From: Acidimicrobiia bacterium | GTDB taxonomy: Bacteria > Actinomycetota > Acidimicrobiia > Spongiisociales > UBA11373 | Reading direction: 5' to 3' | Length of the DNA stretch: 64,000 nt | Assembly (NCBI GenBank): GCA_041551965.1 | Contig: JBFELU010000001.1 | Span: 5,132 to 69,131, forward strand | Program-made: the position numbers and the translations under genes | Shown here: positions 23,401-30,231 of the stretch, one piece after another | Layout: the number at the start of each line of letters is the position of its first letter | How positions within the stretch are numbered: the first letter of the stretch is position 1 | Notes under the pieces: model-generated | What the model saw: the letters and a program-made list of their open reading frames with translations, nothing else | Database searches by the model: none | Told to the model about the DNA's origin: nothing

Positions 23401-23535
23401 GTTGGCCCGCACCAGCGCCTCGAGCCGGAGCGCCATCGTCGTGGTCTTCCCGGTGCCGGCGCCGGCCAGCACGCGAAGCGGGCTCGGGGGGAACCGGAGG
23501 ACGACGGCCTGCTCGGGAGAGGGGGTGATCCTCAT
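20473..23535 (-). CDS. adnB: UvrD/PcrA-like helicase fused to a RecB-type nuclease; AdnB-like subunit
   Basis: It has Walker A GAGTGKTTT and the DEYQDTN motif. The C-terminal PD-(D/E)XK region ends in the Cys cluster CHHCDFVRFC. I set the start at ATG 23535 (MRITPSPEQ), which overlaps the adnA stop (ATGA). The adnA/adnB assignment is by gene order only. Confidence 0.78.
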   Translation of the reverse strand: MRITPSPEQAVVLRFPPSPLRVLAGAGTGKTTTMALRLEALVRANAVAPEEALGVTFTNKAAAELSDRLRSLLPELAAEGRDVEVATYHGFSLGLLREFGALIGIERSAGLITPGYSRQLLTRALTAAPELDLTAPGHRVDELAVLGGQLGDHLLTPADLIDAAPAEPDEIWSQRLEMARALEWYGQRKRSLGLIDYADLITGAHRLVTLHPEIAERIRNRYRVILLDEYQDTNPAQRELLRTLFGDGFPVTAVGDPDQTIYEWRGASLENFAAFPTHFPASDGTPAVTLPLSVNRRSAGRIIDLANAVGSRIGNGTERQDLRPLEGAGPGSVRAGWFRTALDEARWIATEVTRLRDGGTGWSDMAILFRGHRQMGLVREALERQGIPVEVAALGGLLEVPEVADLWAWLTILDRPDDAPALLRVLLGPFYRLGLGDLAPLARWVRQHRPGASDDDVGGIGWALLEAIEHLEECDGPPAEASRRLEAFLDVYRGLLETAQAATLVDLCRSVLDRTGAWQEVEALDDAARLSARLNLYRFLDLAEEWSPLEGGPSLEAFLDYLDLLREERGTEALDTAAVSGSDAVVLLTVHRSKGLEWPVVFLPALCQDTFPARAHAHPDPVAKPQYLPFELRLDAGFFPTLPTDDRQRMDLLRSLHDDQEWRTAYVGVTRAATHLVGTGAFWYSEKRPRRPGPLYRLVAEIGEEVVAETEPGDPPATLRFEDDHSGGPDPAFPGGWRAVLRQALEDPSLPRRLAEDEGGGGAYDARMEQLQLTLEGIAEPPVAVPEQPAFRTSVTGLVTYATCPKRFYWSEIDRLPRRPSPRLRRGIELHRRIELHNRGSMALDDLTDDLYDLGPGEDRGDSEGAYAAFLASRFARERPLLIEAPFDLALDTGRIGGRIDAVYESSPGVWEIVDFKSGRRSDDPARRTQLQAYGLAVHEAGFADPPPSEITVAFVYLGGGLEEVAETVDAEWLSEARARLEDLVAAASAGEYEPMPSPACHHCDFVRFCPEGSARVGSG

Positions 23536-26495
23536 CCGCAATATGCCTCCCTCCCGTCCGGCCACTCCGGGCAGGTCGAACGAACGGGGCAACGGTCACA
23601 TCGCGGGCCGGGACGAGGCCTCCAGTCCTCGCCGGTGATGCCGGCGGCGGCTGCGGCGAGGAGGTCGGAGACCTCGTTGAGATGGGCGGGATCGAACGTC
23701 CGCACGGTGATGCCCTTGGCGCGGGTTCCCGGGTACCAGAACTCGGCCGCGCCCACCTCGCCGAGCGCGGCGATCTCGGGGTCTGTCGCCGCTGCCATGG
23801 AGTAGAAGCCGAGCTGCACCGAGGCAGCCACCTCGGCGACGGAAGGAGCGGAACCGGAGGTCTTGTAGTCCACGATCCGCACCAGCGGGGTGGCGCCGTC
23901 CCGTTCTTCGACCTCGATGCGGTCGATGCGCCCTCGCCAGGTCGTGTCCCCGATGAGAGCGGTGACCTCGTGTTCGACCCGGATGACCCGGCCCGTTCCG
24001 GGCCACGCCGAATAGAGGCGGGTGAGCAGGCGCTCGGCCCTTCTCCGCCACGCCGCCGCCCAGGGACCATCACCGAACGGCACGGGGTCCCAATGATCGG
24101 TGAGGGTGGCGAGAGCGTCTTCGAGCGTTCCGTGGGGATCGCCCCGCTCGGATGCCTGCTGCTCCACCATTTCGAGAACACGGTGGATCAGGTTGCCGAG
24201 CTCCTGATAGACGGACCGTCCCACATCGATGTGGAGCCTCCGGCCGAGCACGTAGTGCCGGGGACAGTCGAGGTAGGCGTCCGCCTGGCTGGGCGACAGC
24301 ACCGGGTCGGGGGGGATCAGTCCGGTGTCGGGCCCGCGAGCCAAGACCCCTGCGTAGGTGATCGGTGCTCGGGGTCGCCAGGGTCCACCGGTGACCAGGG
24401 CTCCGAGCGCAGCACGGCGGAGGGCACCGGGATGGGCGGGATCACGGATGGTTCGCCGCAGCCAGGCCTCGGCCTCCAGCGGGGTGGCCGGCACCGGGTC
24501 GCTGACGGGATCCGAGAGTGCATCCTCCATGCGGTCGGCTCCCGCGACGAGCGGGAGGAAACGGCTCGGCACCCCGCGACCGTCCTCGAAGCCGACGGTC
24601 GTACAGGTCCAGATCACCCGTCGGGTGGCGCGAGTCATCGCGGTGTAGGCGAGGCGCATCTCCTCCTGGAGACGAAAACGGATGTATTCGGTGGGAGGCG
24701 TGGGGATCTCGGTGAGATGGCGGGTGCCGAGCAGCGATTCGCGGGCCCGGAGGTCGGGAAAGACTCCTTCGCGGGCATCGGCGATCACGACGACGTCGAA
24801 CTCGAGACCCTTGGCCTGGTGGAGGGTGGTGAGCACCAGGCGGTCGTCGGAAGGCGCGTGGAACTCCAGCAGCGGTGTCGCCTCGAAATCCTCGGTGATG
24901 CTCAATGCCACGTAGTCGGCCAGGGTGGCCTGCGGGTCTCGTTCGCCGAGCCGCGTCAAGACCTGCGCCAACGAGGACCAAGCGATTCGATCGGCGCGGG
25001 AGCGGTCGTTTGTGACCGACTCGGCAAAGGCCGGGAGGGTCGACCATAGGTGCCAGAATCCGTCGGCCGCCGGCATCTCGATGGCCCAGGAGGGATCCTC
25101 GAGCAGGCCGGCGAGGGCTGATCCGCCCCCCTCCAGGCTGCGGAGCACATCGGGCCAACCGGCGTCCTCGGCCGACCGGCGGCGGCGCAGTTCCCGCATC
25201 GCCGACAGCGGCAGGCGGAACAGAGGCCCGAGGAGGAGCCGCCGCATCGCTGCTTCCGACTCGTGTGTGGCTGCGGTGACACAGTCGAGGACGACCCGCA
25301 CCGCCGGATGGTCGACGAGCCTCGCATCGGGGGGATCGTGGGGGATGCCTCGCCGGTCCAGGGAGCGGGAGAGTTCGGACAAGAACGGGTTCTTGGAGCG
25401 CACCAGTACCGCCATACGGCGGTACGGGGTGTGCTCCCTGAGATGAATGCGCTCCAGGGTGGCGGCGATCCACTCGGCCTCGTGGGTCTGCTGATCGAAG
25501 GCGTAGGTCTCGACGGAGCCGCGGGTTGCGGCCGGAGTGACCGGCCCCGCGGCGCCCGGCAATCGTCCGCCGGCGGTCACCCTGACTGCGGCATCGAGGA
25601 TCTCGGCCGGAACCCGAAAGGACGTGGTCAGCACGATACGGCGTGCCGGATCCCCCGCGGCGTCGGGGAACGCGGTGGGGAACGCCTCGATGTTGCCGAG
25701 ACGGGCTCCCCGGAACGAGTAGATCGACTGATAGGGATCGCCTGCCGCCGTGAGGTTGCGATGCTCGCGATACAGCAACTCGAGGATCCGGGCCTGGGCG
25801 AGCGTGGTGTCCTGGTACTCATCGACCAGGATGTAGTCGTATTCCGCGGCGACCCGGCCGGCGGCCCCGGGTTGGGAGAGCAGTGACACCGCCCTGGTTT
25901 GCAGCGAGCCGTAATCGAGCCGGTGGGCCGCCTCGAGTGCCGTCTGATAGTGGCCGAGAAAGGCGGGGAGTCGCCGCCAGTCGGCTCGCTCCGTGGCCCG
26001 GACGGCCAGCGCCTCGGGATCGATCAGCTGCTCGCCACAGCGGAGGATGAAGTCGGCCACCTCGTTGGCAAAGGTCTGGCTGGTGAGCAGGCCCCGGTAG
26101 GGCAACGGCCAGGAGTCCGGGTCCTCAGAGGCCAGGAGCTCGTGGACCAGGGCCACCTGCTCCGGGCCGGTGAGGAGCGGCGGCACCCCGCGGTCATCGG
26201 CGTCGTGCGCCTCCAGGAGTCGGTGAGCCAGGCCGTGGAAGGTGAAGGCGCTGACTCTGGTGAGCGACCGGCCCAGTCCCTCGGTGACCCTCGTCCGCAG
26301 ATCGGCCGCCCCTCTTCGCGAAAACGAGAGCAGGAGGATGCGTTCGGGCCCGACCCGCTCTTCGTCGATGAGGTGGAGGGCCCGTCGGACGAGGAACTCC
26401 GTCTTGCCGGTCCCCGGTCCCGCCACCACGAGCTGCGGCCCCGACGCCCGTGCGATCGCCTCCGGCCAGTCCCCGGGGTCGACGCGCACCTCCAT
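23532..26495 (-). CDS. adnA: UvrD/PcrA-like helicase fused to a RecB-type nuclease; AdnA-like subunit
   Basis: It has Walker A GPGTGKTEF and the VDEYQDTT motif. The C-terminal nuclease region has the Cys cluster CDRCPVRSTC. It is the first gene of the coupled pair. Confidence 0.78.
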   Translation of the reverse strand: MEVRVDPGDWPEAIARASGPQLVVAGPGTGKTEFLVRRALHLIDEERVGPERILLLSFSRRGAADLRTRVTEGLGRSLTRVSAFTFHGLAHRLLEAHDADDRGVPPLLTGPEQVALVHELLASEDPDSWPLPYRGLLTSQTFANEVADFILRCGEQLIDPEALAVRATERADWRRLPAFLGHYQTALEAAHRLDYGSLQTRAVSLLSQPGAAGRVAAEYDYILVDEYQDTTLAQARILELLYREHRNLTAAGDPYQSIYSFRGARLGNIEAFPTAFPDAAGDPARRIVLTTSFRVPAEILDAAVRVTAGGRLPGAAGPVTPAATRGSVETYAFDQQTHEAEWIAATLERIHLREHTPYRRMAVLVRSKNPFLSELSRSLDRRGIPHDPPDARLVDHPAVRVVLDCVTAATHESEAAMRRLLLGPLFRLPLSAMRELRRRRSAEDAGWPDVLRSLEGGGSALAGLLEDPSWAIEMPAADGFWHLWSTLPAFAESVTNDRSRADRIAWSSLAQVLTRLGERDPQATLADYVALSITEDFEATPLLEFHAPSDDRLVLTTLHQAKGLEFDVVVIADAREGVFPDLRARESLLGTRHLTEIPTPPTEYIRFRLQEEMRLAYTAMTRATRRVIWTCTTVGFEDGRGVPSRFLPLVAGADRMEDALSDPVSDPVPATPLEAEAWLRRTIRDPAHPGALRRAALGALVTGGPWRPRAPITYAGVLARGPDTGLIPPDPVLSPSQADAYLDCPRHYVLGRRLHIDVGRSVYQELGNLIHRVLEMVEQQASERGDPHGTLEDALATLTDHWDPVPFGDGPWAAAWRRRAERLLTRLYSAWPGTGRVIRVEHEVTALIGDTTWRGRIDRIEVEERDGATPLVRIVDYKTSGSAPSVAEVAASVQLGFYSMAAATDPEIAALGEVGAAEFWYPGTRAKGITVRTFDPAHLNEVSDLLAAAAAGITGEDWRPRPGPRCDRCPVRSTCPEWPDGREAYCG

Positions 26496-26710: not shown

Positions 26711-27517
26711 CTAGGGACTCGCGGCGGCGCTCGGCTCCGGCGTTCCCACGAAGGCCGGCACCCGGTCCTCCCACGCCGGACAGATGTCCTGGAACGAACA
26801 CCAGTCGCAGAGGCGACCCACCCGGGTCGGAAAGCGGTCTTCATCGATGGCCCGCTCGATCGCCGTCCACAATGCCCGGAGCTGCCGGTCGACGGCATCG
26901 AGTTGGGCATCGTTGATGGGGATCTCGTAGACCGTGGGGCCATTGAGATAGATCAGCTTGACGGAGTCGGGCGTGCGTTCCATCCGTCGGCGGATGAGGA
27001 GCGCGTAGATCTTGAGCGCAAAGAAGGCGGGGAGGGCATACCGTTCCGGCGGCGCCTTGCCCGTCTTGTAGTCGGTGATCACGAGCCGGCCATCCTCGGT
27101 TTCCTCCATCCGGTCGAGGATGCCGCGAATGGTGATCCCATCCATCTCCTCGAGCATGTCGAGTTCGCGATCGAGAGGCTCGATGCCCCGGGGATCCTCC
27201 GCGGTGAAGTAGTTGGCGAGGAGCTCGAGGCTCTCCACGCCCCAGGCCCGCTCCCCCTCCACGTCGTCGAACAACCCGTCGTACTCGGTGGTGCGCAGTT
27301 CGGCCCACGCCCGTCGGAACAGGTCGAAGAGAGCCTCGGGGGTGCGCTCCTCCGGCGGCATGTCGAAAAGCCACTCGAGCGCCTGGTGGGCCGTCGTTCC
27401 CCGGGCCTGGAAGACCGTGGCCGGTTCGGGGAGGCGATCGATAGCCCGGAACTTGAAGAGTTGCGGGCAGGTCTTGAAATCTCCGGCCCGGCTCGGGGAC
27501 AGGGTCTCGAGTGGCAT
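26711..27517 (-). CDS. PD-(D/E)XK nuclease, Cas4/RecB-exonuclease-like, with a 4-Cys (Fe-S type) arrangement
   Basis: An N-terminal Cys lies in DFKTCPQLFKFR, and the C-terminus has CDWCSFQDIC. The central region is RecB-like (ITDYKTGK). Confidence 0.8.
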   Translation of the reverse strand: MPLETLSPSRAGDFKTCPQLFKFRAIDRLPEPATVFQARGTTAHQALEWLFDMPPEERTPEALFDLFRRAWAELRTTEYDGLFDDVEGERAWGVESLELLANYFTAEDPRGIEPLDRELDMLEEMDGITIRGILDRMEETEDGRLVITDYKTGKAPPERYALPAFFALKIYALLIRRRMERTPDSVKLIYLNGPTVYEIPINDAQLDAVDRQLRALWTAIERAIDEDRFPTRVGRLCDWCSFQDICPAWEDRVPAFVGTPEPSAAASP

Positions 27518-27627
27518 GGGGCGACCTTACCCCAAGGGAGTGACACGGGTGTGATTCGGGCCCCGTTCGGTGACGTCACGGGAGCGGTGTGCCGGCGCGG
27601 ACAGACTCGCGAATAGTTCGCATGAGA

Positions 27628-28000
27628 CGCGAAAACAAAGCAGCGTTCTCGCTTGACGCCCCTCTCGCGGCCGTCGTATGGTTCAAACACTTCCTCCTCG
27701 GGACCGCAAGGAAACGGGGAGGCGGCCTCGGAGGAGGCTCCCGAAAGGGAGACGCCCGAGAGGGCCTTCGGGCTCACTCGGGTCACCTCCGGGGCCACGG
27801 CCCGAAAGCCGGGTTTCGGCCTGGTGGCCGGGTTCCCCTCCGGGGAGCGCTTCGCAAGGGGCGCACCACGAAGGGTAGAGACCCCGAGGGGGTTGAGGTT
27901 TCGGCCGAGACTTCCTCGGGGTTCTCGCGTCTCCCGGGTTCCCGTGTCCGATTTGGCCCGGTGCTCATGCGGGATAGCCTTAGTCCGAGAGCGGACACGG
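27628..28000 (+). ncRNA. Candidate structured RNA element, copy A (long 5' leader of the ferritin gene); family unknown
   Basis: This is a non-coding interval. It contains a dense series of GC stems capped by GCAA (27706-09, 27854-57), GAAA (27743-46), GAGA (27758-61) and UUCG (27767-70, 27900-03). These read as stable tetraloops on the + strand only. It aligns in blocks with copy B, and a 9-bp closing helix (27942-50/27992-28000) abuts the SD. Confidence 0.45.
27653..27682 (+). promoter_or_regulatory. Candidate sigma-A-type promoter inside structured element copy A
   Basis: TTGACG (27653-27658), an 18-nt spacer, then TATGGT (27677-27682). It is tentative, because the motif shared by both repeat copies (27628-27641) lies upstream of it. 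Confidence 0.3.
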
Positions 28001-28010
28001 AGAGGTGACC

Positions 28011-28505
28011 ATGACGATGAGTGCCGGGCTTCTCTCGGCCTTTCAGGAACAGATCGCACTCGAGTTCTCGGCGGCGTACTCCTATCTCGCCATTGCGTCC
28101 TACTTCGAGGGCGAGAACCTCCCGGGTTTCGCCCATTGGATGGAGGTCCAGTATCGGGAGGAGCTCGAGCACGCCGAGAAGTTCCGCCGCTTTCTCCTCG
28201 ACCGCGGGGTTCCGGTCGAGTTGCGCGCCATCACCGCGCCCGCCTCGGAGTTCGATTCCCCGGTGAGTGCGATGGCACAAGCCCTCGCCGGCGAGGAGCG
28301 GGTGACCGGCGCCATCCACGAGCTCTATCGCTCGGCCGTCGCCGAGGACGACTACGCCAGTCTTCCCCTGTTGCAGTGGTTCATCGACGAGCAGACGGAA
28401 GAGGAGGCCTCGGTGGGGGCACTCCTCCAGGCCATCACGATGGCCGCCGACGACCCGGCGGCACTTCTCATGCTCGACAGGGAAGTGGCCGCGCGGGGCG
28501 GGTGA
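28011..28505 (+). CDS. ftn: Ferritin (non-haem ferritin-like di-iron protein)
   Basis: Ferritin blocks are present: QIALEFSAAYSYLAIASYF, EELEHAEKF, FIDEQTEEE. The SD GGAGAGG (27999-28005) lies 5 nt before ATG 28011. The ORF track starts at an in-frame GTG at 28005. Confidence 0.9.
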   Translation: MTMSAGLLSAFQEQIALEFSAAYSYLAIASYFEGENLPGFAHWMEVQYREELEHAEKFRRFLLDRGVPVELRAITAPASEFDSPVSAMAQALAGEERVTGAIHELYRSAVAEDDYASLPLLQWFIDEQTEEEASVGALLQAITMAADDPAALLMLDREVAARGG

Positions 28506-28508
28506 AAC

Positions 28509-28886
28509 CGCGAAACAAAGCGTTCGGTCGCGAAAACGAACCTGCGGCTGAGAGGGCGATCGCTCCGTCGACTCTCTAACGTGACGGGACCGTCGAGTCG
28601 GGAGACCGGCACGACGGAGGCGACGGCCTCCTCCGCAAGGAGGAACGGGCGACACGGGCCTTCGGGTCCGAGCCGGCCGGGGTCGGAGTCGGCCCCGCCG
28701 AGAGTTCGCTCGAGGCAGGGATCGGAGTGGTCGCAAGGCCGCTTCGGCTCCCGCCGGGGAACCGGCCCGCAAGGGAACGGATCCGACGGGAAGGGAACCC
28801 CGAGAGGGCGGAGGCTTCGGCCGAAACTCCCTCGGGGTTTCCCGCGTTCCGTCCGCTGCGGCGTCCCGGGATTCCCGAGACGCCGC
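28509..28886 (+). ncRNA. Candidate structured RNA element, copy B (3' of the ferritin gene); a paralog of copy A
   Basis: It begins 4 nt after the ferritin stop. Tetraloop hairpins are GCAA (28635-38, 28733-36, 28769-72) and UUCG (28661-64, 28743-46, 28816-19). It shares sequence blocks and a nested helix module with copy A. Confidence 0.45.
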
Positions 28887-28900
28887 ATGATTCTTGATCG
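28858..28900 (+). terminator. Strong terminal hairpin of copy B followed by a relatively U-rich tail; possible intrinsic terminator of the ferritin transcript
   Basis: GCGGCGTC (28858-65) pairs perfectly with GACGCCGC (28879-86). An inner stem CGGG/CCCG encloses an AUU loop. The hairpin is followed by AUGAUUCUUGAU. Confidence 0.35.
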
Positions 28901-29181
28901 CCTCTTCGCAGTCGCCTGACCGACGCCGGACGCGATCGCGGAGTCCGACAATGCAGAGGCGGTCAACGTCAGCACCCGCGTGATCGTGTCGGCCAAACAC
29001 GTCAGCGCCAGTGCATTGGGTGCCTACCTGTTCAAGAACACACACGAACTGAGCGCAGTACTCACCGATTCCGGGACCGTGCAGAACGCGGCCCTGACTA
29101 CCCCGTTCTGCGAGCGCGCGGGCAAGGTCGTGTTAGGTGATCGGCGAAGTCTGGTGAGGTATCTACGTGCGGCTGGGGCGT

Positions 29182-29469
29182 TCACCCCGACTCACCGAAA
29201 CGCTCAAACGCTTCGGCACAAGCTCGATTCCATCCGGCATCCCCGGTCCAGTAGAAATCGAAGGACCTGAACTCGAAGTCGTCGGCGTAGAACGGGTCTG
29301 AGGTGAGACCTGGTTGCCCTGCCTCACCGAGTTCGATACCGACCTGCCCGTGCAGGTCCATGTTCCGGGAGCACCAGTTCTTCGCCTCCTCGGAGAGGGA
29401 TGGCCCGCCGTTGCCGCATGCAGCTGTGGCCAGGGCAACGGTCAAGACGATGGCAACGATCCGATTCAT
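29182..29469 (-). CDS. Small lipoprotein, function unknown
   Basis: I set the start at ATG 29469, which is preceded by GGAGGGGGA. The signal sequence plus lipobox is MNRIVAIVLTVALATAAC. The longer ORF (to 29679) overlaps the divergent gene's upstream region. Confidence 0.6.
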   Translation of the reverse strand: MNRIVAIVLTVALATAACGNGGPSLSEEAKNWCSRNMDLHGQVGIELGEAGQPGLTSDPFYADDFEFRSFDFYWTGDAGWNRACAEAFERFGESG

Positions 29470-29616
29470 CTCCCCCTCCGGGTGTGGATGACTGCATCTT
29501 GCCATGGTCTGCTGGTTGCCCCTGGGCAAAGGTCCCACTCCGCATCCATCCGCGAGCGTCGCGTGCAGATGCGAATCGCTCTTGTGAACCTGACTGCCCG
29601 TCCTAGGATTCATCCC

Positions 29617-30231
29617 ATGGGTTATCCGGAGCGCCTCCTCACAACCGGCGAGAAGATCGTTCGAGAGTTCCGACCGCATTGGAGGTTGCTGGTCATTCCA
29701 TTTGGGTGGACGGTGCTCATGGGCGCCGCCGTGCTACTCACGTGGGTCTTCCCGCCCGATCAGGAGATCTTCGATTGGGCCGTCACCGGGGCGGCGGTGG
29801 TGGGGTTCTTCGTGCTCGGGCTGTACCCCTTCATCTCGTGGTGGTTCACGTGGTACATCCTCACGACCGAGCGCCTCATCACCCGGCGGGGCGTGTTGGC
29901 CCGAAAGGGTCTCGAGATGCCTCTCGAGAACATCAACGATGTCTCGTTCAGCCAGACGATCCTCGAACGGGTCCTGCGGTCGGGCGATCTCCTCATCGAA
30001 TCAGCGGGTGAGATGGGTCAGAGCCGGTTCGGCGACATCCCCAGCCCCGAGGAGTTCCAGAGCCTGCTCTATCGAGTACGGGAAGACCGGTCGAAGTCCT
30101 TGAGCGGCGCCGGACCCGGATCGGACTCGGTGAGCAAACTGGAGCGGCTGGCACAGCTCTTCAAGGACGGCCTCCTCGATCGCGACGAATACGAGGCCAA
30201 GAAGCAGTCGCTCCTGGACGACGACGCCTGA
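29617..30231 (+). CDS. Membrane bacterial-PH (bPH_2/YdbS-like) domain protein with a C-terminal SHOCT domain
   Basis: E.I..EFRPHWR is followed by two TM helices, then TTERLI.RRG.L.....E.PL..I..V...Q....R.L..G.L (the bPH_2 pattern). The C-terminus (LERLAQLFKDGLLDRDEYEAKKQSLL) is SHOCT-like. I set the start at ATG 29617. Confidence 0.75.
   Translation: MGYPERLLTTGEKIVREFRPHWRLLVIPFGWTVLMGAAVLLTWVFPPDQEIFDWAVTGAAVVGFFVLGLYPFISWWFTWYILTTERLITRRGVLARKGLEMPLENINDVSFSQTILERVLRSGDLLIESAGEMGQSRFGDIPSPEEFQSLLYRVREDRSKSLSGAGPGSDSVSKLERLAQLFKDGLLDRDEYEAKKQSLLDDDA

Follow-up and report, generated by a model that had tools for sequence, protein, structure and literature searches.

An apparently undescribed class of predicted structured small RNAs with private promoter and 3' elements flanks a ferritin gene in Acidimicrobiia

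Two structured elements flank a ferritin gene

The DNA analysed here is a stretch of 64,000 nucleotides from an Acidimicrobiia bacterium (assembly GCA_041551965.1, contig JBFELU010000001.1, positions 5,132 to 69,131 of the forward strand), hereafter the window, with coordinates counted from its first letter. It has 68% G+C and carries a ferritin gene placed between two long non-coding tracts. An earlier note, made from the letters alone, had seen in each tract a structured, RNA-like element, named here copy A and copy B, and had estimated the tracts at about 370-380 nt each; both are in fact longer. In this study we report that the two copies appear to belong to a new bacterial class of structured small RNAs (sRNAs) with unusual private promoter and 3' elements. 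The main features are as follows (MFE, minimum free energy; z, folding z-score).

27518-28010: non-coding tract upstream of the ferritin gene (copy A)
27689..27932, + strand: predicted sRNA A, ~245 nt, MFE -148.7 kcal/mol, z -4.55
28011..28505, + strand: ferritin coding sequence (Pfam Ferritin, E 7e-37)
28506 to ~29180: non-coding tract downstream of the ferritin gene (copy B)
28589..28848, + strand: predicted sRNA B, ~260 nt, seven to eight hairpins, MFE -155.5 kcal/mol, z -4.43

The twelve tetraloops listed by the earlier note are all found where it placed them, as are helices 27882-89/27914-21 of copy A and 28798-804/28831-37 of copy B and the U-G and C-G pairs that respectively close their inner hairpins. 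Tetraloops were counted as GNRA or UUCG loops on at least 3 closing base pairs, with dinucleotide shuffles (n=1000) as control. Copy A contains 6 on the + strand and 1 on the - strand, copy B 10 and 1, against a shuffle mean of about 1; the observed counts were reached in 0/1000 shuffles. Tetraloop density is 24-38 per kb in the tracts and 2.2 per kb elsewhere in the window. Stable tetraloop hairpins are therefore 6-10 times above chance and specific to one strand, as had been proposed. Moreover, the folding z of each tract is -3.7 on the + strand, versus -2.4 and -1.7 on the - strand.

The reading of the copies as two old paralogues also stands: nhmmer aligns positions 128-344 of B with 27741-27932 (E 5e-8) and blastn finds 77% identity over 99 nt. 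Both homology searches and searches with the covariance model R1 described below return copies A and B as the sole two members of the family within the window. Open reading frames cover the copies (27589-28008 and 28581-28919), but were rejected as coding because gaps of 1 or 2 nt between close orthologues break the frame and conservation tracks helices rather than codons.

Orthologous loci were collected by tracing ferritin homologues at 57-86% identity to their contigs (related loci carry our handles L001, L002 and so on). An A-like element lies upstream of ferritin in L001/L002, L004-L007, L062, L148 and L151, and a complete B-like element lies downstream in these loci too, save in L004 and L007, where the contig ends inside the element. 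The B-like element is also preserved in L003, L005, L009 and L149. Both elements are missing where ferritin stands in another gene context (L008, L145-147, L150), and a metagenome scan for close ferritin relatives returned only ferritins at 48% identity or less, none of them with an sRNA. In the orthologous loci both elements are far better conserved than their flanks, and the conservation is sharply bounded: from 5' to 3' it comprises two CGCGAA(A/T) boxes 20 nt apart, TTGACG, a spacer, TAnnnT, the hairpins, and GGGGUU(U)C(U/C)CGCGU.

Terminal hairpin and predicted 3' end

The most conserved part of each element is a hairpin at its 3' end.

27875..27933, + strand: terminal module of copy A, with flank AGAG(A), stem CCCCGAGG...CCUCGGGG, an internal GA/GA loop, a UUCG cap and tail UUCUCGCGU
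28791..28849, + strand: terminal module of copy B, with flank GGGAA, stem CCCCGAG...CUCGGGG and tail UUUCCCGCGU

This terminal hairpin is near-invariant over ~50 nt and forms an irregular GC-rich stem of ~20 bp that is both conserved and covarying. R1, built from 42 distinct terminal modules, gives 67.2 bits (E 7e-15) for copy A and 77.4 bits (E 2e-17) for copy B on the + strand, against 23 and 25 bits on the - strand; the next unrelated match in the window reaches 15.6 bits. Five flank/tail pairs of the module covary (GAGAG:UUCUC, GGGAA:UUCCC, (U)GAGA:UCUCG, UGGAG:UUCCA), and one internal position appears as A-C (31 sequences), G-C (5) or A-U (5). Selection on the + strand RNA is indicated by the abundance of G-U pairs, by the asymmetry of the tetraloops and by the gap of 45-50 bits in R1 score between strands.

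The GC-rich stem is that of a canonical intrinsic terminator, for which a U-rich tract of 7-9 nt directly 3' of the stem is also expected. The tail of the family has the consensus UUUCUC, followed by CGCG(U) in 96/128 units; the 32 units that lack the CGCG have longer U-rich tails, such as UUUCUCUUUUC. Actinobacterial RNA polymerase, assisted by NusG, terminates well at imperfect U-tracts (PMC3993855), and the terminal hairpin is presumably the terminator of these RNAs. Termination alone does not explain, however, why 40 nt stay near-invariant across the class while the rest of the RNA drifts; a further function is suggested, the simplest being that a protein recognises the hairpin.

Behind copy B, at 28857-28887, lies a strong 15-bp hairpin (UGCGGCGUCCCGGGA/UCCCGAGACGCCGCA, 93% complementary) followed by UGAUUCUUGAUC. 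Orthologues lack it; it might give copy B a back-up terminator, or else belong to an insertion described below.

Hairpin arrays of the RNA bodies

Upstream of the terminal module, both RNAs are predicted to fold into strings of short hairpins.

27693-27722, + strand: hairpin H1 of sRNA A
27724-27796, + strand: three-way element H2 of sRNA A
27799-27834, + strand: hairpin H3 of sRNA A
27836-27875, + strand: hairpin H4 of sRNA A
27878-27926, + strand: terminal hairpin H5 of sRNA A
28723-28748, + strand: hairpin CGGAGUGGUC-GCAA-GGCCGCUUCG of sRNA B

The following alignments were examined for compensatory changes.

A-type: 8 sequences, 79 predicted pairs, 22 with compensatory changes, 92% paired
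B-type: 6 sequences, 84 predicted pairs, 10 with compensatory changes
Short class, four hairpins: 17 sequences, 48 predicted pairs, 22 with compensatory changes
Terminal module: 42 sequences, 21 predicted pairs, 9 with compensatory changes

Covariation supports the hairpins. The earlier note had suggested looking for it among homologues, and in the A-type alignment, a small one like that of the B type, the 22/79 double-change pairs compare with 11±2 after column shuffling (0/500 shuffles reached the observed number) and with 3-6 when pairing partners were slid. One B-type unit, L003 650-750 on an NCBI metagenome contig, contains an internal duplicated segment broken by NN that is probably an assembly artefact, as the hairpins there are repeat-like.

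The bodies of the family range from ~100 to 450 nt, and whole hairpins are gained or lost even among close relatives. A loop census of 79 non-redundant bodies (stems of at least 4 bp) gave 136 UUCG, 76 GAAA, 74 GCAA and 40 GAGA loops, about 1 per 50 nt, and k-mer enrichment in the same bodies found nothing beyond generic tetraloops. Some internal hairpins resemble the terminal module, namely 27753-27783 and 28686-28732 (R1 23.5 and 19.4 bits); GCCCGAGAGGGCCUUCGGGCUCACUCGGGU, for example, is a shortened copy of it. This suggests that the RNA bodies could have grown via duplication of hairpin modules.

Such RNAs might be trans-acting antisense sRNAs that pair with mRNAs, their hairpins serving mainly for stability. 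The layout, a multicopy family with shared promoter and terminator, is typical of antisense sRNAs, and the 5' end of the A type holds a CU-rich CUUCCUCCUC that resembles an anti-Shine-Dalgarno sequence. In every sequence, however, this CU-rich end takes part in the H1 stem. Conservation in the A- and B-type alignments is higher at paired than at unpaired columns, and UUCG loops are the only conserved unpaired runs of at least 4 nt; the lack of a conserved seed argues against seed-type antisense action in these types and for a function borne by shape. Comparison by eye with the start regions of ferritin and of the downstream bPH_2 gene found no target complementarity either. The predicted RNAs of the family fall into length classes of ~150, 240-300 and 360-450 nt, with a few of ~500 nt, and antisense action is more plausible for the short and long classes, whose invariant segments span 15-22 nt. 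In the short-class sRNA (~150 nt) a 15-nt segment, GGGGGCCCGCUUUCC, stays invariant while the stems around it covary (L012, L015-L017, L022, L029, L041, L046 and others), and the long class keeps GGAGUUGGGUCCCCGGCCCGAC unchanged; A and B contain neither of them. Both segments are candidate seeds or candidate protein sites. Taken over the family, we consider an antisense role unlikely.

Predicted promoters and double boxes

Upstream of each predicted RNA lies a predicted composite promoter with two boxes.

27608-14 and 27628-36, + strand: double box of copy A, CGCGAAT and CGCGAAAAC, 20 nt apart; candidate activator or UP-like site
27653-58 and 27677-82, + strand: promoter of copy A, -35 TTGACG, 18-nt spacer, -10 TATGGT (promoter scan); predicted start ~27689
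28509-16 and 28529-37, + strand: double box of copy B, CGCGAAAC and CGCGAAAAC, kept in all B-type orthologues
28553-28582, + strand: promoter of copy B, degenerate -35 AGGGCG, -10 TAACGT at 28577-82; predicted start ~28589

The TTGACG-N18-TATGGT of copy A is the only sigma-70-like match returned by the promoter scanner in 27450-29700. At the position aligned to the copy B promoter, orthologues L001 and L009 have TTGACG-N18-TAACGT/TAGGTT; in the window, as in its close relatives L003 and L062, the -35 of copy B has decayed. In the orthologue alignments the -35 and -10 hexamers are conserved and the 17-18-nt spacer varies freely. Hexamers at a fixed spacing around a variable spacer are the mark of a promoter, and on this ground the RNA starts are predicted near 27689 for A and 28589 for B.

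The double-box pattern occurs exactly twice in the 64-kb window, with 0 expected, and 166 times in 852 kb of related loci, where 166/166 precede RNA units of the family. In 93 units the composite promoter reads box-N13/14-box, 17-18 nt, -35, 17-18 nt, -10; the distance from box 2 to the -35 is 18 nt in 76/93 of them, and the -10 is mostly TACTTT or TACGTT. Positions outside the search pattern are also conserved, namely AA at +10/+11, counting from where box 2 begins, and GC preceding the TTG, and the composite motif is thus not an artefact of the regular expression. The CGCGAAA(A)CAAAGC block that the earlier note had listed among the conserved RNA blocks (CGCGAAAAC...) probably belongs to this promoter, and the 5' 60-85 nt of each element are probably promoter DNA and not RNA. 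The motifs of ClgR, GlnR and IdeR were compared with the boxes, and none fits across the family.

The CGCG behind the terminal hairpin repeats the box core in inverted orientation. Another possibility is that the RNA is ~310 nt long, near the extent given by the earlier note, starts upstream of the boxes and is closed by a long-range helix between CGCGAAAAC (27624-36) and GUUCUCGCGUCUC (27921-33), the apparent promoter being a variable internal loop. In copy A the inverted match to box 2 extends over 13 nt with 92% complementarity and is formed when the entire tract is folded to its MFE; in L004 one G-C pair is swapped to C-G; and the tail CGCG is present in most units, as given above. On the other hand, the 32 units without the tail CGCG keep the box CGCG, which shows that the helix is not maintained by covariation; the B copies, L001 and L009 could form it only weakly. 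The fixed 17-18-nt spacing of TTGACG and TAnnnT around free sequence is a promoter signature, no conserved promoter is found further upstream, and the space there is occupied by the promoter of the divergent nuclease gene. We regard this longer RNA as highly improbable.

Distribution of the family

The family was scanned for with the exact terminal-hairpin pattern GAGNGGGNNGAGGNTNCGGCNNANNCTNCCTC in one genome per species, a search that may miss diverged members and cultured relatives. It returned 103 stretches, nearly all from Acidimicrobiia metagenome-assembled genomes (MAGs); two are chance matches in Verrucomicrobia MAGs. The others are labelled Acidimicrobiia, Acidimicrobiaceae or Actinomycetota, or come from otherwise-labelled bins with the same gene neighbourhood. 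Among the latter, L011, L021, L022, L031, L033, other MFD bins, L073 and L087 are labelled Acidobacteriota, Gammaproteobacteria or Boseongicola; here the taxonomic label is probably wrong or the contig misbinned.

With R1, 164 terminal modules are detected in 100 of these loci, most loci having two on the same strand. A and B are two distinct mid-size paralogous types that normally stand in tandem upstream of a bPH_2 gene.

The earlier note could place the element in no RNA family, and our searches lead to the same result. At gathering thresholds Rfam 15 has 0 matches in the window and 20 related loci, and at permissive thresholds the best hits (mir-207, sucA, F6) have E values of at least 0.9, far below gathering. 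Literature on Acidimicrobiia non-coding RNAs, the CGCGAAA motif and tetraloop-rich actinobacterial sRNAs yielded nothing relevant. The family, found in about a hundred Acidimicrobiia genomes, is thus apparently undescribed.

The tracts are full of GC-rich palindromes, box and tail are inverted copies of one core, and hairpin 27753-27783 repeats the terminal hairpin in miniature, pointing to module duplication. These features could also be those of a DNA-level repeat devoid of RNA function, such as a REP/MITE-like palindrome or a site bound by gyrase or a nucleoid protein; the earlier note had named many dispersed, near-identical copies as the sign of such an element. What is found instead is 2-5 diverged copies per genome at syntenic positions, and in each of two complete chromosomes the pattern matches at a single locus. 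Strand asymmetry also speaks against a DNA repeat, as seen in the R1 gap, in the + strand tetraloops and in the G-U pairs that become A-C on the opposite strand. No tandem repeats are present, and plasmid and phage collections contain no match to the family. This reading is already largely refuted, and we give it next to no weight.

Neighbouring genes

In the window the RNA pair is surrounded by the following features, in addition to the ferritin gene itself.

23532-26495: UvrD-like helicase-nuclease gene, behind the PD-(D/E)XK gene
26711..27517, - strand: PD-(D/E)XK nuclease gene (Pfam), the usual divergent upstream neighbour
27975..27980, + strand: the ferritin gene's own -10, TAGCCT, upstream of the ribosome-binding site GGAGAGG and ~30 nt before the ATG at 28011
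29604..30231, + strand: bPH_2/SHOCT membrane-protein gene (Pfam bPH_2, SHOCT), with -10 TAGGAT at 29604-09, 7 nt, and ATG at 29617

Gene calls in related loci rest on a simple GC3 heuristic, and the counts that follow are to be read with this in mind. The downstream gene is co-oriented for 99/122 units, often 30-140 nt away, and the upstream gene is divergent for 90/115. A bPH_2/SHOCT homologue is the nearest downstream protein for 65/122 units, and the AdnAB-like PD-(D/E)XK/UvrD-like nuclease-helicase is the upstream protein for 40/115. The layout of a typical genome is seen in L016: nuclease gene on the opposite strand, short RNA, long RNA, and leaderless bPH_2 gene.

The earlier note had offered a leader/trailer pair, an sRNA or a protein-binding scaffold as possible roles; the last two agree with our data, and the first does not, since both ferritin and bPH_2 have a -10 of their own. 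A TAnnnT ends 6-10 nt before the bPH_2 ATG in 40/46 distinct loci (38/40 at 6-8 nt), against a background of 2.3%. This -10 directly before the ATG makes the bPH_2 mRNA leaderless and its gene a separate transcription unit, and in related loci it sits directly behind the terminal hairpin of the sRNA. The window keeps the leaderless arrangement despite a ~770-nt insertion between copy B and bPH_2. As for ferritin, the stretch from RNA A to its start contains a single conserved block in 5 orthologous loci, TAGCCT, and L148 and L151 have TACGAT at its position. The block was considered as an iron box and is read as a -10 instead.

These observations bear on the possibility that the copies are cis-acting leaders or attenuators, A for ferritin and B for bPH_2, in which the terminal hairpin would be a regulated terminator with read-through. 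Here each of the two genes is indeed preceded by one copy, the co-orientation and closeness of the next gene are what a leader would show, and strong stems with imperfect U-tract tails could leak. Beyond the promoters of the two genes, however, two units are often consecutive with no gene between them, and no alternative antiterminator pairing is evident. Bodies of 100-450 nt that gain and lose hairpins are unlike a ligand-binding aptamer. Finally, other short units, at unrelated loci, face convergent genes, so the family as a whole is not a set of 5' leaders. A cis role is therefore improbable. A riboswitch or other 5' leader was likewise set aside as a known type, because the downstream genes carry their own -10 and no ligand core of fixed architecture is seen.

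The association with ferritin that gave the earlier note its frame turned out to be incidental, the same RNA pair being found without ferritin in most genomes. A-type units without ferritin occur in L014, L060, L075, L076 and L096, each followed by a B-type unit; nothing fills the slot between them in L075 and L096, an unrelated ORF does so in L076, and in the window's lineage it is taken by ferritin. Since the pair occurs without ferritin and the content of the slot varies, ferritin is lineage-specific cargo between two units and not part of the RNA system.

Discussion

We favour, with moderate confidence, the explanation that each tract is a free-standing sRNA gene, whose product would be a stable, co-regulated RNA acting in trans through a protein on its terminal hairpin. 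The anatomy of the gene is much firmer than its function. Transcription would depend on a dedicated promoter, with two CGCGAAA boxes 20-21 bp apart placed 18 bp upstream of a TTGACG -35, and a -10 of the TAC(G/T)TT type. The RNA would be an array of short GC helices with ultra-stable GNRA/UUCG caps, ending in a near-invariant irregular hairpin of ~20 bp whose 5' flank would pair with the U/C-rich tail. Most likely this hairpin would stop transcription, through its strong stem and imperfect U-tract, and most likely it would also offer a family-specific protein one shared binding site on all members; a stable, rigid, nuclease-resistant scaffold or decoy would be provided by the variable hairpin body. 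The RNAs would then act in trans under one shared transcriptional signal, as neither ferritin regulators nor antisense RNAs, and ferritin would have been inserted between A and B in the window's lineage.

A number of points weigh against this explanation. The 5' start, the 3' end and the abundance of the RNAs are deduced from sequence. A strict U-tract scan (at least 5 T in 8) finds no terminator, the window tails UUCUCGCG and UUUCCCGC both failing it, and mycobacterial RNA polymerase does not terminate without a U-tract (PMC3993855). Given its degenerate -35, copy B may need an activator or be transcribed by read-through from ferritin. The loops are mixed (UUCG, GAAA, GCAA, GAGA) with no single repeated motif, and a Csr-like sponge is not specifically supported. 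The orientation and closeness of the next gene also fit a cis role, and the invariant segments of the short and long classes could be antisense seeds. In addition, the survey of neighbourhoods found no recurrent RNA-binding or regulator gene near the units.

A bolder and rather doubtful extension is that the RNAs form the RNA half of a class-wide Acidimicrobiia ribonucleoprotein (RNP), with a protein on the terminal hairpin, a factor on the double box, and a scaffold perhaps placed at the membrane with bPH_2, whose protein has two predicted transmembrane helices. The protein would recognise the tandem G-A, the A-C mismatch and the UUCG cap, in the manner of an Sm site or a histone stem-loop, and the tetraloop-rich bodies would be rigid scaffolds working with the adjacent bPH_2 protein, as OLE RNA does with OapA. 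If true, the system would represent a novel type of bacterial RNP whose gene architecture resembles that of snRNAs, i.e. a private promoter and a private 3' element.

Several known systems share part of this organisation. Like the Rsm/Csr RNAs (RsmX/Y/Z, CsrB/C), the present family consists of free-standing paralogous sRNA genes of differing length with many stem-loops, a promoter with a dedicated upstream activating sequence and, at the end, a hairpin that is here a presumed terminator. Unlike them, it has no repeated loop motif equivalent to GGA, only generic UUCG/GNRA loops, and its most conserved part is the terminal hairpin, which is not the case in Rsm RNAs. To our knowledge, CsrA is generally absent from Actinobacteria. 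Qrr1-5 and LhrC1-5 are paralogous sRNAs with common regulator boxes and a conserved 3' stem-loop, sometimes in tandem, and are ~100 nt long with conserved single-stranded seeds; A and B differ from them in having no seed, in being 2-4 times longer and in their variable bodies.

The gene of OLE RNA adjoins the gene of a small membrane protein, its partner OapA, for which the counterpart here is bPH_2. As in the present family, OLE is a lineage-restricted structured non-coding RNA of unknown biochemical role (PMC3413148). OLE is, however, one RNA of ~610 nt, whose single ornate fold is conserved and which is transcribed together with its neighbours; the present family has 2-5 RNAs of 150-500 nt, with variable bodies and predicted promoters of their own, and the adjacent gene is leaderless and transcribed separately. 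Searches of the window and related loci gave no similarity to OLE, in sequence or in Rfam.

Ms1 is ~300 nt long, and both 6S and Ms1 are rod-like with a central bubble. The Acidimicrobiia RNA is instead, in predicted and consensus folds, a string of independent hairpins present in several copies per genome, and its synteny is with an AdnAB-like nuclease and bPH_2 rather than with the oxidoreductase/HAD hydrolase of Ms1. Identity with Ms1/6S is ruled out by fold and synteny, although these RNA-polymerase-binding RNAs are likewise highly structured, ~200-300 nt long and conserved in synteny rather than in sequence (PMC9130861, PMC4191392). A type III toxin-antitoxin antitoxin was also rejected: TRF finds only a 16-nt repeat in 1.9 copies, and the downstream gene is bPH_2/SHOCT or ferritin instead of an endoribonuclease toxin gene.

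Acidimicrobiia are widespread and almost unstudied at the molecular level, and no class-specific RNA was found for them in Rfam 15 or in the literature. The present family combines about a hundred species, 2-5 genes per genome, a private promoter motif, a near-invariant 3' hairpin and arrays of variable length. It offers three testable handles, namely the RNA itself and the factors expected to bind the boxes (a regulator) and the terminal hairpin, and may uncover a novel RNA-protein system or stress regulon. For annotation, the covariance model and promoter motif can be applied to Acidimicrobiia genomes, and leaderless promoters directly behind sRNA terminators are flagged; the ferritin of the window is not under an exotic RNA control element.

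Other features of the locus

The insertion between copy B and bPH_2 (28850-29600) is specific to the window's lineage, orthologues having 30-60 nt there. It includes a small ORF on the - strand at ~29182-29470, lipoprotein-like, MNRIVAIVLTVALATAAC....

In L023, L018 and L083, short units at a second locus are tail-to-tail with a membrane protein of ~730-820 aa, whose C-terminus looks, by eye, PP2C/SpoIIE phosphatase-like. In L031 and L035 the unit adjoins a 113-aa protein.

Upstream of copy A, the PD-(D/E)XK nuclease gene looks leaderless: ahead of its start at 27517, the sequence at 27524-27558 (- strand) reads TGTCAC, N10, TAAGGT, N6, ATG. We take it to resemble the mycobacterial RecA-independent (PafBC-type) DNA-damage promoter TGTCRGTG-N8-TAnnnT. 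The block GTGACACGnGTGT upstream of the nuclease gene is conserved in the orthologues.

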